From sequence record PZ445447.1: a stretch of DNA of 64,000 nucleotides; one strand, given 5' to 3'. The stretch's first letter is position 1, and each line of letters opens with the position of its first letter. A program made the position numbers and the translations under genes. A model generated the notes under the pieces. It was not told where the DNA came from. It saw only the letters and a program-made list of their open reading frames with translations, and searched no databases. This document shows, piece by piece, positions 5,693 to 61,555 of this stretch. Source of the DNA: a phage.

Positions 5693-6025
5693 ATGGTAAC
5701 ATTAGAAAGACGTAAAGCTATCGCTGCCACACTGGCAGACATCTTTTGGGATTGTAATTTAAAATCTACCCGAAATTGTGGCGCATCTGTAGATGTATTA
5801 TTCCCACGGCCTACTATTGTTGCAATGGGCAACCTTCTTGATGTGGTATATGGAGCATGGGACAAGGAAGGTGGATTCTATATCTGGCAACCTGACTACG
5901 GGACTTGGAAAGAGGTTAGTGGTTCTACGGACTTCACTCCTGCAGTGGCTAAAATGGATGGCTGGAAAATCTATGTCGGTAACGACATGGAACTGAAAGG
6001 CGAAATTGTTTACTGGTTACCTTAA
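5693..6025 (+). CDS. hypothetical protein
   Basis: ORF in array; no motif recognised. Confidence 0.5.
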   Translation: MVTLERRKAIAATLADIFWDCNLKSTRNCGASVDVLFPRPTIVAMGNLLDVVYGAWDKEGGFYIWQPDYGTWKEVSGSTDFTPAVAKMDGWKIYVGNDMELKGEIVYWLP

Positions 6026-6045
6026 GAAAGTGCAGGGGATAAAGT

Positions 6046-6291
6046 ATGAACAAAGGGTGGACATTTGTAGACGGCGTTGAAAACATGCCTCTAGGAAAGT
6101 ATATTGTAGCCATGGCAGATGAGAATGGCAAGGTTGATTTCGGAGCTTGCGAGATTGTTCTTGCAGGATCTGGTGACCATGTGCACAAAACTGGGATAAT
6201 TAACGGTCATTTCTACTTTGATTACAACCCTGTTGTGGCGTATATGGCTATGCCAGAGTTAGAGCTCCCAAAGGAGGGTGCAGATGTTTAA
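6046..6291 (+). CDS. hypothetical protein
   Basis: ORF with purine-rich RBS (gcaggggataaagt). Confidence 0.5.
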   Translation: MNKGWTFVDGVENMPLGKYIVAMADENGKVDFGACEIVLAGSGDHVHKTGIINGHFYFDYNPVVAYMAMPELELPKEGADV

Positions 6292-6481
6292 GCTTAAATC
6301 TGCATGGAACATCGCTGTGGGGGATGAGATCCGCATCCCAGGTGGAAAGACCATTATGAAGATATCACGTATCGAGTATGAAGGTGATCGTGTATTTCAT
6401 ATCTTTGCAGAAGATGGTCGAGAAATTTATATACAGGCAGGCTCTCACATCTATATTCGTAAGAAAGGGGACGACAAATGA
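6278..6481 (+). CDS. hypothetical protein
   Basis: ORF with AAGGAGG RBS; overlaps neighbours by a few nt (translational coupling). Confidence 0.5.
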   Translation: MQMFKLKSAWNIAVGDEIRIPGGKTIMKISRIEYEGDRVFHIFAEDGREIYIQAGSHIYIRKKGDDK

Positions 6482-6810
6482 CAGAGATCATCGTTTCAAC
6501 TGCAGGGTATGTATTCCTGACAATCATTGCGTTGGCTATTCTGGTGGCGGTGTATGGATTTGTTATCCTGCCTATTCTTGAGACATTTAGCTTGTGTCGG
6601 TGTTGGAGAAAAGCTTACGGACCACAACCGTGGAAAGACTGGTTTCATTTGGTGCGTATAGCGTTCTCTTATGCCTATGATCACTCCAGCAGTGCATGCG
6701 TAACCGGGTACCATGCCTACAACTGGAACTGGGAAGGGCTTGGGAGATGGACTGTTACAAAAACTATACCCTTACGGTTGTATAAAGGAAAGAACACACT
6801 GGGAGCCTGA
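6478..6810 (+). CDS. membrane protein (one predicted TM helix)
   Basis: hydrophobic stretch YVFLTIIALAILVAVYGFVILPIL near N-terminus. Confidence 0.5.
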   Translation: MTEIIVSTAGYVFLTIIALAILVAVYGFVILPILETFSLCRCWRKAYGPQPWKDWFHLVRIAFSYAYDHSSSACVTGYHAYNWNWEGLGRWTVTKTIPLRLYKGKNTLGA

Positions 6811-6845
6811 TATTTTAAGTTATCAGATTGCCAGAGATCAGGAGG

Positions 6846-7300
6846 ATTTCTAAAATGGATTTCCTCCTTTTGATATTTTACCTACCAGGATATTTTAAAA
6901 TCCTTAGAAAATCAGAAAATGGATCGAAAACTAAAATGGATTTTTCAGAGCAGGCACGACGAGATGAACCACTCATCCTATCGTCTGCACCATATTCCAG
7001 ACCACCATTACAGATTTCCCGCACATGCTCACATCCTTCTACTAGAACTTCCCCCACTTACCCTTGACCTTTTATAGTAATAATCCAACCACTACCTTGA
7101 AGTTGTGGCGCAGCTTTCCAAGTACTCGATCTGTTTTTCGTTTCAAAGATTGAATTTTCTGAAAATTTTTCTCGATAAATTTCTCAGTACTCGATCTGTT
7201 TTTCGTTTTCTGAATCGGATTTTCTGGAAATCGTTCCGGCTCTCGACCTGAAATTTTTGGGGACGAAATCGATTTTTCGTTTTCAGAAATGGATTTTTAA
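6846..7300. repeat. AT-rich iteron-like direct repeat array
   Basis: agtactcgatctgtttttcgttt occurs at 7121 and 7186; aaatggat(t) at about 6854, 6917, 6936, 7288; gattttctg(r)aaa three times. Confidence 0.6.
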
Positions 7301-7414
7301 AATTTCTATATGGGAATATTTTAGTGGATACTATTTTATAGGAAATTGTTACGGAGGGTAATTAGCGTGCTAATTAAATTTATTAAATGCGAGGAGTTCT
7401 CATTTAGAATTTTG

Positions 7415-7745
7415 AATGATAATCATTCTCGTTTGCAGAATAACGGGCAGGCCCGGTGATTGTCTCCCGGCCCCTACTGCCCCGGCTTGTTATTATAGTA
7501 ACACACAGGACAAAGAAAGCAAGAAGTTTTTGCATAAATTTTTAGACGATAATGATAATCGTTCTCATTTCATGCAGCGCCCATCCCCGGTGGTTGTCTC
7601 CCCCGTCACCGGTGCCTGCCGTCCTTTCGATAGGTATATTTTGCCACCTGGCGGGGCCGCTGTCAACACTTTTCAAAAAAAAAAAAATTTCTAACCTGAT
7701 GCGCTGACCGCTGCAACCTGGCGGGGCCAGCCTGGCAGGGCCTAA
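7415..7745. repeat. GC-rich motif repeats (non-coding)
   Basis: gataatc(a/g)ttctc(g/a)ttt...gcag twice; ccggtgrttgtctccc twice; cctggcggggcc twice; A13 tract at about 7670. Confidence 0.5.
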
Positions 7746-7830
7746 CTGACCAGGTAGGAGAGAATGAAGGCTTGCAAACCTGGTGGGCCTATGCTATAGG
7801 ATAGGTAACAATTGAAGAGGAGGTACAAAA

Positions 7831-8007
7831 ATGGAAGGTAATATGATCCCCCTGGAAAATGTAGCTATTAATGACGCTGAGGCTATCGCCCTGGTTGAAA
7901 AGGCTATGGCGGGAGCGTTGGAACATAAAGAAGAGTACGAAAAAATGGTGGTTAACCTGGCAGGGGCGGCGGCTGGAGAATTCTACCCAAAAAATAATTT
8001 TAACTAA
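7831..8007 (+). CDS. small hypothetical protein (58 aa)
   Basis: ATG 7831 preceded by gaagaggagg RBS; below the ORF-track length cutoff. Confidence 0.4.
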   Translation: MEGNMIPLENVAINDAEAIALVEKAMAGALEHKEEYEKMVVNLAGAAAGEFYPKNNFN

Positions 8008-8092
8008 TGGTTGACAGCTCGGACAGTTCTTGTTATTCTTATCCTCGCAAGGTGAACAACACCACACCAATTAACAGAGAGGATAAAAAATC

Positions 8093-8290
8093 ATGAACGC
8101 CTACGGAATTAAAGTACGTCGCAACACTCGCCAGGTGGTCACCAATCAAGTGATTTGCCGGGTGGATGTAACCATCAACAACGGGCAAGGCCTTTATAAA
8201 TTTCGTCGCGGTCATAGCTATACCCTGCAACAGCTTAACCGTTGCGCCCTGACAAAAGGTCAGATCAACCACTGGTTTAATAAAAAATAA
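8093..8290 (+). CDS. hypothetical protein
   Basis: ORF with agaggataaaaaatc RBS; upstream TTGACA at about 8011. Confidence 0.5.
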   Translation: MNAYGIKVRRNTRQVVTNQVICRVDVTINNGQGLYKFRRGHSYTLQQLNRCALTKGQINHWFNKK

Positions 8291-8353
8291 TGTTGACATA
8301 TGGTCTGACACAAAATACACTGAAATCACAAAAGACACTAAGAGGATAAAATC

Positions 8354-8752
8354 ATGAAAACCACTACCTTTAATTTTGATAATGCGGACTTTTCTTTTTC
8401 TGATGTCAAGAACTGCCGCCGTGATCGTGGATTTTACAAGGCTTATAATCTGGTGGGCCTGGACGATGACAATAATTTGCACGAAGTAGCTGAGATCCGG
8501 TATTATGCCGCCGCCAGTGGTAACACTCACTACTGCGTGTTTTGGATTCACGACAACAAGAACAATAAGTACGGTTATACTGGCGGCAAGGCGAGCGGTC
8601 ACGGTTACGATAAAGCTAACGCAGCACTTGAGAGCGCATTAAATGCTATGGGGATCACTGCCGACGGCTGGATCTACGAAGAAGAGTTTTTGTCGGCACT
8701 TGCTGACCACCTGGGCTATAAAAAGCACATTGTGACATGCGCCCACGAATAA
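8354..8752 (+). CDS. hypothetical protein
   Basis: ORF with taagaggataaaatc RBS; upstream TTGACA at about 8294. Confidence 0.55.
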   Translation: MKTTTFNFDNADFSFSDVKNCRRDRGFYKAYNLVGLDDDNNLHEVAEIRYYAAASGNTHYCVFWIHDNKNNKYGYTGGKASGHGYDKANAALESALNAMGITADGWIYEEEFLSALADHLGYKKHIVTCAHE

Positions 8753-8755
8753 AAA

Positions 8756-8817
8756 TCATTGACACGCTGCAAAATTTAAGTAAACTAGACACAAAAGGCG
8801 GGAATGTTTCCCGCCAG
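8756..8817 (+). promoter_or_regulatory. promoter plus 5' stem-loop cassette
   Basis: TTGACA 8757, -10-like taaact, then hairpin ggcgggaa-tgtt-tcccgcc before the RBS of the next gene. Confidence 0.5.
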
Positions 8818-8835
8818 CACAAAGGAAAAAAGATC

Positions 8836-9231
8836 ATGAATAAGAACGTACGCCGCATCATGAACGAACTGGCAAACGATGAAAAAATTATTGACATGCA
8901 TTTAGTCAACATTTGCCGCCGTTGTGTAACATATAACAACCGCGCCGCAAAAGCGCGTGAGATGAACGCAAAAGGCACCTTAAAGCCCTTTCAGGTGGTT
9001 GTAAAATCTATAACCAGTGCAGCAGGCCAGGCGCATGACCACAACAACGGGAGCACTAATATTGATCCGTCTTACGTAATGAAACGGATCCGGACTTGCA
9101 AGAATAAAGAGCAGGTGTATAATGTCATAGACTGGTTGGATTCTATGGGCGATGTGGTTTACAATAGGTTTTCTGCAGCTATCGAGATCCAGCTTGACAG
9201 GTTGGACGGTAAAGTACTGAAAACTTACTAA
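8836..9231 (+). CDS. hypothetical protein
   Basis: ATG 8836 after aaaggaaaaaagatc; in frame with longer track ORF. Confidence 0.55.
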   Translation: MNKNVRRIMNELANDEKIIDMHLVNICRRCVTYNNRAAKAREMNAKGTLKPFQVVVKSITSAAGQAHDHNNGSTNIDPSYVMKRIRTCKNKEQVYNVIDWLDSMGDVVYNRFSAAIEIQLDRLDGKVLKTY

Positions 9232-14359: not shown

Positions 14360-14394
14360 GGCCCCTGGCAGGGCCTGCAGCGATATAATCACAT

Positions 14395-14850: not shown

Positions 14851-14906
14851 ACCTGGCGGGGCCGAAAAGGCCCCCCAATTATGAAAATAAAGAGAGGCAA
14901 ATCATC

Positions 14907-16405: not shown

Positions 16406-16554
16406 CCGTGAAAAAGATAATCATTACCTTGGGGATTGTGGCGGGATCGCTGGCGCTCTTTCCCCTTATGGTTAGATATGTGCTGATCAGTATTGTCCTG
16501 GTGGTCAGTGATCTACTAGAAACGGTTGGCACCTTGTTTTAAAGAGCGATAAAA

Positions 16555-16746: not shown

Positions 16747-16957
16747 TCCTTATTAACTAGAAAACAGGGCTTGCAATGGTCCTGTTTTTTGTTATACTTA
16801 TTACACGGCAGGCACCTGGCGACGGGGGGAGACAATCACCGGGCCTGCCTGTCATATAAGAACTATAAAAACCGTTGACATCTGCCAGGTGGTGGGGTAA
16901 CATTTATCTTGAAGGGGCAAAAGTGCCCACACAACAACCAGAAGAGAGGAAAACATT

Positions 16958-17230
16958 ATGTCAAGCTGGATTAATCAAGAAGTCGAATCACGTTTTAATG
17001 CTATTTGGGATCTCATCGAAAAAGAGGACGGAACATCAAGCCCTTATCTCAATAATCTTGAATTCCATTTCGTGGAAGCGATGAACGCAGAACATGATCA
17101 CGAAGGTGGTGCGGATGAGTTCGCTAAAGGGTATGGCTTCAACAATGCCAACGAAATGATCGAGGCGGTTGTACTCCAGGCTGAGGAAGATTATCAATTA
17201 AAAACGCTTGAATTCTGCCGCCGTAAGTAA
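16958..17230 (+). CDS. acidic hypothetical protein
   Basis: ORF with gaagagaggaaaacatt RBS; preceded by TTGACA (16877) and hairpins. Confidence 0.55.
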   Translation: MSSWINQEVESRFNAIWDLIEKEDGTSSPYLNNLEFHFVEAMNAEHDHEGGADEFAKGYGFNNANEMIEAVVLQAEEDYQLKTLEFCRRK

Positions 17231-60742: not shown

Positions 60743-60817
60743 GCCCTGTTAGCTTAGTGGATAAAGCAGCGGCCTTCTAAGCCGTTGACACTGGTTCGAG
60801 TCCAGTACGGGGTGCCA
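60743..60817 (+). tRNA. tRNA-Arg (anticodon TCT)
   Basis: manual cloverleaf: acceptor gccctgt/acggggt, D-stem gctt/aagc, anticodon loop cttctaa, T-arm actgg-ttcgagt-ccagt, encoded CCA. Confidence 0.8.
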
Positions 60818-60821
60818 AATT

Positions 60822-60908
60822 GGGGAGTTATCCCGTAGAGGTAGCGGTGTAGACTGTAAATCTATTGTCATTGCGACTCGGGTGGTTCGACTCCACCACT
60901 CCCCACCA
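60822..60908 (+). tRNA. tRNA-Tyr (anticodon GTA), type II
   Basis: acceptor ggggagt/actcccc, anticodon loop ctgtaaa, long variable arm, T-arm ggtgg-ttcgact-ccacc, encoded CCA. Confidence 0.75.
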
Positions 60909-61022
60909 AATTTATATTTTTAGATGCATAAATAATACAGATAATGGCATTGATATTTATCGTCGTTTATACTAGTCACTAACTGCTCGAAAATCAGTGT
61001 CATTATCAGTATAATTTATAAA

Positions 61023-61113
61023 GGAGGGTAGGGAGCAATGGTGCTCAAGCGGTCTTGAAAACCGTCCCGTTGAGGATGACTCGATGATGGTTCGATTCCA
61101 TTACTCTCCGCCA
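61023..61113 (+). tRNA. tRNA-Ser (anticodon TGA), type II
   Basis: acceptor ggagggt/actctcc, anticodon arm gcggt-cttgaaa-accgt, long variable arm, T-loop ttcgatt, encoded CCA. Confidence 0.75.
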
Positions 61114-61211
61114 CATTGTTGACCTTGTAATTAAGCGAAAGCCGGAAGCAGAACCGGATTATCAAATGTTACAGTCGTCATCGCCGACTAGCAACATGGT
61201 CAACATACTGA

Positions 61212-61310
61212 GCTAGGTAAGCCCTTTGGCAAGGGCGAGGATTTTTAATCCTGAAAATAGACGAGGTAGTCGTTGAATACATAGGTGGTTCGATTCCATC
61301 ACCTAGCACC
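61212..61310 (+). tRNA. atypical tRNA-like gene (anticodon ambiguous, TTT if 7-nt loop)
   Basis: acceptor gctaggt/acctagc, D-arm gccc-tttggcaa-gggc and T-arm ggtgg-ttcgatt-ccatc are canonical, but anticodon stem is imperfect and 29 nt lie between anticodon arm and T-arm; 99 nt total. Confidence 0.4.
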
Positions 61311-61315
61311 TTTTT

Positions 61316-61391
61316 GCTGATGTAGCACAATCGGTAGTGCAATTGATTTGTAATCAATAGGTTGTAGGTTCAAGTCCTGCCATCAGCACCA
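61316..61391 (+). tRNA. tRNA-Thr (anticodon TGT)
   Basis: acceptor gctgatg/catcagc, D-stem gcac/gtgc, anticodon arm attga-tttgtaa-tcaat, T-loop ttcaagt, encoded CCA. Confidence 0.8.
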
Positions 61392-61392
61392 A

Positions 61393-61467
61393 GGCCCTGT
61401 AGCTGGAAGGTTCAAGCAAGCGACTCATAATCGCCAGACGGTGGTTCAATTCCACCCAGGGCCACCA
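61393..61467 (+). tRNA. tRNA with CAT anticodon (Met or lysidine-type Ile)
   Basis: acceptor ggccctg/cagggcc, anticodon loop ctcataa, T-arm ggtgg-ttcaatt-ccacc, encoded CCA; 3-bp D-stem and A.C at top of anticodon stem. Confidence 0.65.
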
Positions 61468-61478
61468 AATAGTAAATA

Positions 61479-61555
61479 CTCCGCGTAGCTCAGCTTGGTA
61501 GAGCGCCTGATTTGGGATCAGGAGGTCGAGTGTTCGAATCACTCCGTGGAGACCA
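61479..61555 (+). tRNA. tRNA-Pro (anticodon TGG)
   Basis: acceptor ctccgcg/cgtggag, D-arm gctc-agcttggta-gagc, anticodon arm cctga-tttggga-tcagg, T-loop ttcgaat, encoded CCA. Confidence 0.8.

Follow-up and report, generated by a model that had tools for sequence, protein, structure and literature searches.

Switches built from convergent promoters and antisense RNAs are found in ColE1 (RNA I/RNA II), in coliphage 186 (pR/pL) and in pCF10 (prgQ/prgX), and stx1 of H-19B is a temperate-phage cargo gene under the control of Fur. Promoters are also components of phage replication origins, the primary origin of T7 consisting of two promoters followed by AT-rich DNA, and oriF and oriG of T4 of a promoter with an unwinding element. 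The nearest published case to the locus described here is that of the Fur boxes lying upstream of sitABCD in lambdoid prophages (PMC6969025). The present analysis deals with a stretch of 64,000 nucleotides of phage DNA (sequence record PZ445447.1, hereafter the window) and, within it, with the gap between a gene that ends at 6810 and the next gene, which starts at 7831. We propose, with about an even chance of being right, that this gap holds a sense/antisense RNA cassette gated by Fur (iron) beside an array of direct repeats (iterons). No earlier description of the locus was found in Rfam or in the literature searched.

Among broad-host-range coliphages, the rV5-like phages (Vequintavirinae, Phapecoctavirus) are some of the commonest, and therapy and biocontrol cocktails make wide use of them. 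If the proposal is true, they would provide a clear case of a strictly lytic phage sensing a host nutritional signal, via Fur, and the host iron sensor would be coupled to phage non-coding transcription and possibly to replication. These phages are intended for use in the gut and in infected tissue, settings in which iron is normally limiting.

Predicted convergent promoters and Fur operators

The DNA is that of a Vequintavirus (an rV5-like myovirus, a phage of E. coli); over positions 6600-8000 it shows 100% identity to Escherichia phage MaxBurger and 92-99% to numerous relatives. Comparisons within the genus were made on an alignment of 10 Vequintavirus sequences. The locus may be read as two modules, module 1 comprising the iterons (7112-7310) and a conserved block to their left (6889-6948), and module 2 (7396-7690) comprising two face-to-face promoter cassettes, units A and B, with the following features.

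7412-7441, + strand: rightward promoter P_AS(A), TTGAAT, 18-nt spacer, CAGAAT, predicted from the sequence to start transcription at about 7448
7412-7430: Fur box A, TTGAATGATAATCATTCTC, a 15/19 match to GATAATGATAATCATTATC
7445-7482: element E(A), where the convergent promoters overlap, with the core GGCAGGCCCGGTGATTGTCTCCC
7522-7492, - strand: leftward promoter P_S(A), TTGCTT (7522-7517), 16-nt spacer, TGtTACTAT to 7495, predicted start at about 7485
7530-7559, + strand: rightward promoter P_AS(B), TTGCAT, 18-nt spacer, GATAAT, by direct reading; the -10 lies inside Fur box B
7548-7566: Fur box B, GATAATGATAATCGTTCTC, a 17/19 match, the best on both strands of the 64 kb
7574-7621: element E(B), the second copy, with the core CCCGGTGGTTGTCTCCCCCGTCACCGGTGCCTGCCG
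7666-7638, - strand: leftward promoter P_S(B), TTGACA, 17-nt spacer, CAAAAT with TG, a 10/12 match, conserved
7675-7687: A13 tract, consisting of A/T only in relatives (A13, A10, A6T5)

The motif ccggtgrttgtctccc forms the core of an element of about 40 nt, termed E, between convergent sigma-70-type promoters, and the conserved core GGCAGGNCCGGTGRTTGTCTCC lies about 20 nt downstream of each Fur box. With unit A starts predicted at about 7448 (rightward) and about 7485 (leftward), E would represent an overlap of about 37 nt between convergent transcripts. E(A) is nearly invariant in the genus and its core is kept across genera.

A leftward sigma-70-like promoter with a -10 that ends 28-32 nt (in unit B, 38 nt) before AGACAA was ranked first or second by the promoter scorer in 13 of 14 copies of the element, taken from 6 genera and from both this locus and a second one at 16.8 kb; in the fourteenth, unit A of Phapecoctavirus, TTGCTT-16-TATTCT was read by eye at the equivalent position. 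Because the distance is fixed in the 14 copies, and because the spacers vary while the hexamers are preserved, the leftward promoter is probably real, its fixed placement across copies being the best argument for it. No conserved leftward ORF (open reading frame) exists for P_S to express. A perfect TATAAT (7497-7492) overlaps the -10 of P_S(A). In P_S(B) the spacer holds the first CCTGGCGGGGCC motif, and an A/T tract lies just upstream; by its position the A13 tract may be an UP element of this promoter.

The hexamers of P_AS(B) are invariant in the Vequintavirus sequences, and the promoter scorer found the same -10 with the -35 shifted by one base (TGCATA, 17-nt spacer, GATAAT); those of P_AS(A) are conserved in Vequintavirus, Seunavirus and the Certrevirus F2M1E. 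Box A lies over the -35 and spacer of TTGAAT-18-CAGAAT and box B over the -10 of TTGCAT-18-GATAAT, so that each overlaps the core of a predicted promoter. The two boxes are the two best consensus matches among some 128,000 positions on both strands of the window, and in slur16 box B matches at 16/19. Their agreement with GATAATGATWATCATTATC (17/19 and 15/19) is at the level of validated sites, the E. coli boxes of fepB and entC being 5 and 3 nt off the consensus (PMC5020551). In other genera 1-4 tandem Fur-box-like palindromes with 14-16/19 matches occupy the equivalent position, several with runs of 13-15 nt identical to the fepB and entC boxes, and the identifiable hosts of the matching phages are all Enterobacterales. 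The motif gataatcrttctc is, by prediction, the box of the host Fur.

Conservation within the genus and across genera

Pairwise identity among the Vequintavirus sequences is 60-67% in the end of the upstream gene and the adjoining spacer, 92% in the terminator (6840-6880), 97.6% in the left block (6889-6945), 73% with indels of 1-2 nt in the C-rich spacer (6946-7120), 93.6% in the AT-rich repeats (7121-7330) and 92-97% over 7331-7672, where units A and B reach 96-97%. The A-tract is of variable length in the genus. Further right, the stretch with CCTGG motifs (7695-7790) shows 64% identity, gaps in 60 of 96 alignment columns and large deletions in slur16, DrSchubert, FV3 and HMD-6. On this segment profile the functional core is taken to be 6840-6945 together with 7121-7672. 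Conservation in related phages puts the repeats and motifs beyond chance, except in the CCTGG-motif stretch.

BLAST searches with the intergenic region matched 249 phage records, of which 113 (Vequintavirus) covered at least 80% of the query; in the remaining 136, from other genera, the core of unit A alone was matched, at 71-88% identity. Seventeen of the records, labelled 'Campylobacter phage' (MG0656xx), are 92-98% identical to the region of E. coli Vequintavirus and are for this reason probably mislabelled or contaminants; the contigs of A112b and C2 end inside the region.

Representatives of Seunavirus (PVP-SE1, GAP31), Certrevirus (CB7, F2M1E, CR3, phiTE), Mydovirus, Henunavirus and Phapecoctavirus were compared. 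They share the order of AT-rich repeats, tandem Fur-box-like palindromes, E core and leftward promoter, and the whole architecture of terminator, left block, iterons, Fur boxes and cassette recurs in the five genera. Outside Vequintavirus, unit B is replaced by a conserved block of about 80 nt that ends in a 12-bp hairpin and a U-rich tail. Three wobble pairs of this hairpin (two U-G, one G-U) are valid on the + strand only, and two positions are compensated; the strand-specific wobbles imply, for these genera, a discrete rightward transcript, non-coding and some 215 nt long, from the Fur-covered promoter. To the right of the locus the representatives of other genera carry a small leftward gene (2314-2580, 2276-2698, 2294-2476 and 2126-2311 of their sequences, - strand), a common LGWQGGTVHQVA motif being found in anhysbys gp079 and CB7_124; Vequintavirus has no such leftward gene.

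Coding status

The gap of about 1 kb had been taken for non-coding in the preliminary description and the ORFs within it for artefacts, and both judgements are borne out when every ORF is followed across the alignment. The start codon of ORF 7105-7251 is missing in 7/10 relatives, ORF 7257-7361 has premature stops in 3/10, ORF 7416-7694 shifts frame at the variable A-tract in 8/10, and the minus-strand ORF 6878-7057 is disrupted in 8/10. Variable sites are spread evenly over the three codon positions in the 10 sequences, with no third-position bias, and no ORF of the locus is kept across genera, whereas the non-coding motifs are. The ORF calls in GenBank records are mutually inconsistent, and the published genome map of rV5 carries a 'non-coding' box without ORFs (PMC3606486). 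From the lost starts, the stops, the frame shifts, the lack of codon-position bias and the discordant annotations it follows that 6811-7830, as judged from these comparisons, is non-coding and that the ORFs called there are artefacts. The alternative, that the locus codes for small proteins (bas54_0100/0101/0102 and rv5_gp193/194 in GenBank), can draw on the coding sequences annotated in several records and on two frames that stay open in 9/10 sequences, 7416-7694 as far as the A-tract and 7404-7535 on the - strand; set against the disruptions above, it is hardly credible. Spurious ORF annotations are thereby corrected for many GenBank records.

The repeats and duplicated motifs noticed earlier are likewise present. 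The GC content is 33-37% over 7100-7400 and 43-55% over 7400-7800. In the AT-rich half, AAATGGAT occurs at 6853, 6917, 6934 and 7287, ATTTTCTG(A/G)AAA at 7154 and 7219, and ATTTTCTGRAAA in two copies; in the GC-rich half, GATAATCRTTCTC occurs at 7418 and 7554, CCGGTGRTTGTCTCCC at 7453 and 7587, and CCTGGCGGGGCC at 7647 and 7717, with a further copy at 14852, and the A13 tract stands where it was reported.

Second locus at 16.8 kb

Comparison of the window with itself showed that 7446-7468 is a perfect (23/23) reverse complement of 16827-16849, which belongs to a third, inverted copy of the element, E(C), about 9.3 kb downstream of the main locus.

16763-16849, + strand: second locus, at which a strong promoter (TTGCAA-16-TGtTATACT) is overlapped by a terminator hairpin and followed by E(C) at 16807-16849, inverted

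E(C) lies a few bases past the strong promoter, which overlaps the terminator of the preceding gene, and is followed by a second promoter (TTGACA-17-TAACAT) and by a gene at 16958 (locus 16763-16903). The + strand RNA predicted from it would share its sense with the leftward RNAs from units A and B and would be complementary to the rightward RNAs, which are predicted to be under Fur control. The second locus is conserved across genera, and in CR3 and SSBI34 a Fur-box-like sequence lies downstream of E. At a CC/GG polymorphism in the 3' arm, unit A and the 16.8-kb copy agree in 4/4 genomes (the window and slur16 against FV3 and rV5/TP5), an agreement compatible with selection for pairing or for a shared binder.

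The G-run in the loop of E differs in length at the second locus, being G6 in the window (16823-16828) and G11 in slur16. About 400 bp upstream, a Fur-box-like match of 16/19, GAAAAAGATAATCATTACC (16410-16428; 15/19 in rV5), falls at the start of a small coding sequence (16408-16542) and is probably a coding coincidence.

Structure of the predicted RNAs

Relative to shuffled sequences, the leftward-sense hairpins of E(A) (free energy -21.6 kcal/mol, z score -1.3), E(B) (-20.1 kcal/mol, z -2.0) and E(C) (-23.8 kcal/mol, z -2.7) are more stable than the rightward-sense ones (z -0.3 and -1.3). As for the marks of a structured small RNA, the leftward RNA has a predicted promoter and no consensus structure, and a terminator-like hairpin on the + strand occurs in other genera only.

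Searches against Rfam gave nothing below E = 0.4 in 6000-9000 and nothing at E <= 1 in 7 related loci. Capture of the element from the host is rejected because BLAST of 7395-7680 against all complete E. coli genomes gave no match. There are no tRNAs or tRNA remnants in the region, and no similarity to ToxI-like antitoxin repeats (the pseudo-ToxI of phiTE) was seen. Elsewhere in the window, in the tRNA cluster at 60743-61555, ARAGORN calls a 99-nt 'tRNA-???' at 61212-61310 with a four-base anticodon (atcc).

Iteron array

The AT-rich half, described earlier as iteron-like, is a true array that is conserved across genera, and an operator-like palindrome lies to its right.

7112-7310: three imperfect direct repeats (iterons), forming the AT-rich core, 33-36% GC
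7359-7376: 18-bp palindrome TAATTAGC-GT-GCTAATTA, operator-like

Three units of about 70 bp (7112-7297) follow one another with start-to-start distances of 65 and 74 bp. The 23-bp repeat AGTACTCGATCTGTTTTTCGTTT, reported earlier at 7121 and 7186, is exact (7121-7143 and 7186-7208; self-BLAST E = 8.6e-7) and forms part of a three-copy family. In each unit there is a head of the CTCGATC type, with a TTTTTCGTTT segment and one of the GGATTTTCTGRAA type. Seunavirus and Mydovirus have three units of the same design (GGTWCTCGATC head, TTTTC-rich segment, CGTATTTTTTCT..GAAAAAATTTTT), Henunavirus three units with a diverged head, and Certrevirus 4-6 heads of the CTCGATC type. The array is presumably a protein-binding scaffold, and may plausibly act as an origin. 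Inside iteron 1, TCGATAAATT (7172-7181) is an exact match to what we take to be the high-affinity H-NS motif of Lang et al. 2007. The palindrome at 7359-7376 is kept in 10/10 Vequintavirus sequences and perfect (GCATGC centre) in 6/10, and was not found in the other genera.

Proposed mechanism and alternatives

Promoter activity, binding of Fur, the existence of the RNAs and their targets are here inferred from the sequence, and the mechanism is put forward on that footing. P_S, the leftward sigma-70 promoter, is not covered by a Fur box and is presumed to be constitutive, and the first 40 nt or so of its RNA would form a G-rich hairpin, element E in its sense form GAGACAAWCACC. P_AS, rightward and overlapped by a near-consensus Fur operator, would make the complementary RNA. 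When iron is plentiful, Fe-Fur would sit on the boxes, the rightward promoters would be shut and the leftward RNA alone would be produced; when iron is scarce, Fur would come off and the rightward RNA would be produced. This RNA may counter the leftward RNA in cis, through convergent transcription and an RNA duplex, and may pair in trans with E at the 5' end of the 16807-16849 transcript. In Vequintavirus it would, moreover, read through into the downstream early genes, as the scan found no intervening terminator.

Several observations weigh against this mechanism. Full-text literature searches turned up neither a transcriptome nor a Fur study nor any mapping of an origin in these phages. The promoter scan was not enriched over shuffled sequences (3 found, 3.0 expected) and missed a bulged terminator, so that the promoter calls rest on cross-genus conservation, and the CAGAAT read as the -10 of P_AS(A) might owe its conservation to being the tail of the leftward RNA. 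RNAalifold, run on 20 element copies in both orientations, gave no consensus structure, for which reason no conserved fold is claimed, and some natural variants weaken the E stem without compensation. Complementarity between the two loci is automatic for inverted paralogues; as such sequences pair by construction, the duplex energy of the rightward RNA with the 16.8-kb leader (z -2.2 to -7.7) is given no independent weight. The concordant CC/GG polymorphism also fits gene conversion and may reflect perhaps two lineages and few independent events, and in CR3 and in Phapecoctavirus the two loci are unlike at several positions. Copy C of Vequintavirus and Phapecoctavirus has no Fur box. Finally, one position of the box that is off the consensus (GAGAAT for GATAAT) is preserved symmetrically in several genera, which leaves room for a dedicated phage protein.

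Such a protein is at the centre of one alternative, in which the palindromes are look-alike operators of a phage-encoded regulator and the E elements and iterons are sites of an early/middle switch without any link to iron. The cross-genus consensus AATGAGAATCATTCTCATT, a symmetric variant of the Fur box, speaks for it, as do the further operator-like palindrome nearby (7359-7376) and the conservation of E as primary sequence without clear covariation; we give it a small probability, since arrays of overlapping hexamers in tandem are characteristic of Fur, the neighbouring genes offer no identifiable candidate regulator, unit B agrees with the host consensus at 17/19 and the boxes of other genera carry the runs of 13-15 nt shared with fepB and entC (PMC5020551). 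A second alternative retains Fur and makes the boxes a decoy, the 2-4 high-affinity boxes of genomes replicated to high copy titrating host Fur and derepressing iron uptake, with promoters and RNAs incidental. There are indeed multiple near-consensus boxes in each genome. Multicopy Fur boxes derepress the regulon, an effect on which the Fur titration assay is based. Only 2-4 boxes per genome would, however, face thousands of Fur molecules per cell, and the decoy explains neither the fixed placement of the boxes over promoter cores nor the conserved element and its inverted copy, which makes it very improbable.

Replication is a different matter, and an origin at the locus, with the iterons and the AT-rich DNA as initiation or unwinding site, is a tentative alternative that is compatible and overlaps with the Fur-gated cassette. 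The tandem leftward promoters would fire into the iterons, activating them or laying an R-loop primer, and the Fur boxes and the antisense promoter would modulate the process. Such a role would explain why each genus has two strong leftward promoters facing the iterons and no ORF for them to express, and the G clusters at the start of the leftward RNA, the position of the locus as the single large gene-free stretch in a tightly packed early region and a design like that of the T7 primary origin and of T4 oriF/oriG point the same way. The array is AT-rich and conserved across genera, its three units at 33-36% GC supplying the direct repeats beside an AT-rich stretch that mark iteron origins; repeats are typical of phage and plasmid origins (PMC7145576), and the primase/helicase of rV5 has been likened to podoviral ones (PMC3606486). 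On the other side, a scan of the locus found no exact DnaA box, no IHF site and no excess of GATC, the units of 65-75 bp are far longer than classical iterons, copy C has promoter and element without iterons, and no initiator or DNA-binding protein is recognisable among the 10 neighbouring gene products, which belong to no known families. The GC skew has no inflection at the locus, and the cumulative skew turns only with the direction of transcription, near 21 kb and 56 kb; skew is a weak test of origins in phages, and the rV5 study had the same outcome and could not locate the origin by it (PMC3606486). By analogy, the two ideas may be joined in an iron-gated origin, in which the G-rich leftward RNA from P_S would prime or activate initiation at the iterons, in the manner of ColE1 RNA II or of the T7/T4 origin transcripts, and the Fur-repressed antisense RNA would be the counterpart of ColE1 RNA I. 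This combination is rather unlikely; if true, phage replication would be licensed by holo-Fur in the presence of iron and held back in iron-starved hosts, and the same antisense RNA would exert control in trans over the inverted copy at 16.8 kb. A fixed genome terminus at the locus is ruled out, phiTE and PVP-SE1 being circularly permuted.

Flanking features

The idea of a regulatory hub at a module boundary holds in so far as a conserved cis-acting locus lies between the terminator at 6840-6879 and the promoter at 7772-7800. All genes around it are on the + strand.

6840-6879, + strand: intrinsic terminator of the upstream gene block, an AGGAGGA..TCCTCCT hairpin followed by TTTTGATATTTT
6889-6948: left conserved AT-rich block, GATATTT and two AAAATGGAT repeats
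6946-7120: variable C-rich spacer, its composition kept and its sequence not
7695-7790: variable stretch with the remaining CCTGG(C/T)(G/A)GGGCC copies
7772-7800, + strand: predicted promoter of the downstream gene block, TTGCAA, 17-nt spacer, TATAGG

The terminator (-14.7 kcal/mol, z -2.9 against shuffled sequences) shows a compensatory change of its stem from GGAGGA/TCCTCC to GGAGAA/TTCTCC in slur16 and DrSchubert, and its loop contains a third AAAATGGAT copy. A promoter-like TTGCCA-17-TAAAAT (6828-6856) is embedded in the hairpin. The left block, with GATATTT and AAATGGWTTT repeats, is common to other genera; in PVP-SE1 and Mydo a similar GATATTT / AAATGGTTTT block is in the equivalent position. 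The C-rich spacer has a GC skew of -0.33 to -0.44 in 10/10 Vequintavirus sequences, a bias not seen in the other genera, and the excess of C over G could mark a rut (Rho-loading) site for rightward read-through or a G-rich leftward RNA.

CCTGGYRGGG is matched 6 times in the window against 0.27 expected, and variants of CCTGGCGGGGCC lie at 7731 and 7779. The stretch 7695-7790 appears to hold partial duplicates of the downstream promoter's -35 and spacer. The earlier suggestion that cctggcggggcc marks hairpin terminators did not hold, as no copy is followed by a U-tract, one copy lies in a leftward promoter spacer and the others in the least conserved, deletable stretch; an intrinsic terminator there is ruled out, the fold of 7710-7760 having a z score of -0.8, the scan finding no terminator and the sequence being deleted in relatives. 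The CCTGGCRGGGCC copies at 14364-14376 and 14852-14875 are short GC hairpins between genes without U-tracts (GGCCC..GGGCC at 14.3 kb and GGGGCC-GAAAA-GGCCCC at 14.8 kb). The downstream promoter is followed by a Shine-Dalgarno sequence, GAGGAGG (7817-7823), and by the ATG at 7831.

Comparison with known systems

T4-type phages reportedly carry promoter-early stem-loop (PeSL) cassettes, said to have been described by Arbiol et al. in 2010. The terminator hairpin fused to an early promoter at 16763-16798 and the promoter-like site in the terminator at 6828-6856 resemble them; PeSLs, however, are many short repeated intergenic cassettes, whereas here 2-3 copies of an element stand with Fur boxes at fixed loci. 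The convergent-promoter switches of ColE1, coliphage 186 and pCF10 share with units A and B the face-to-face promoters, the overlapping RNA 5' ends (about 37 nt here), the regulation of one partner and a target in trans with the same element. In contrast to those systems, the overlap is short, the proposed regulator is a host metal sensor, no hairpin is supported by covariation and the RNAs are predicted.

Origins of the iteron or transcription-activated type (lambda ori, P1 oriR, RepA_N plasmids, T7, T4 oriF/oriG) likewise combine direct repeats in AT-rich DNA with promoters firing inward, and the units of other genera contain A/T-tract inverted sub-repeats reminiscent of the iterons of RepA_N plasmids (PMC7145576). 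Here, by contrast, the units measure 65-75 bp, and there is no adjacent initiator gene, DnaA or IHF site or skew signal.

Fur-repressed promoters of enterobacteria, such as the bidirectional fepB-entC region, resemble the phage locus in the 19-bp GATAATGATWATCATTATC-type box placed over -35/-10 and in tandem or overlapping boxes, and the phage boxes agree with the consensus at least as well as validated host boxes do (PMC5020551). The differences are that the present boxes are found in a virulent phage, have no iron gene downstream, belong to a predicted convergent cassette of non-coding RNAs and lie in DNA that has no counterpart in E. coli genomes at the nucleotide level. Fur-controlled cargo of temperate phages such as sitABCD also involves a phage-borne promoter wired to the host Fur regulon (PMC6969025); sitABCD and stx1 are, however, accessory protein genes of prophages that are expressed in lysogens, whereas the present locus is a core, family-wide, non-coding one in strictly lytic phages. 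The components are of known kinds; what appears to be new is to find them combined in a core locus of lytic phages.

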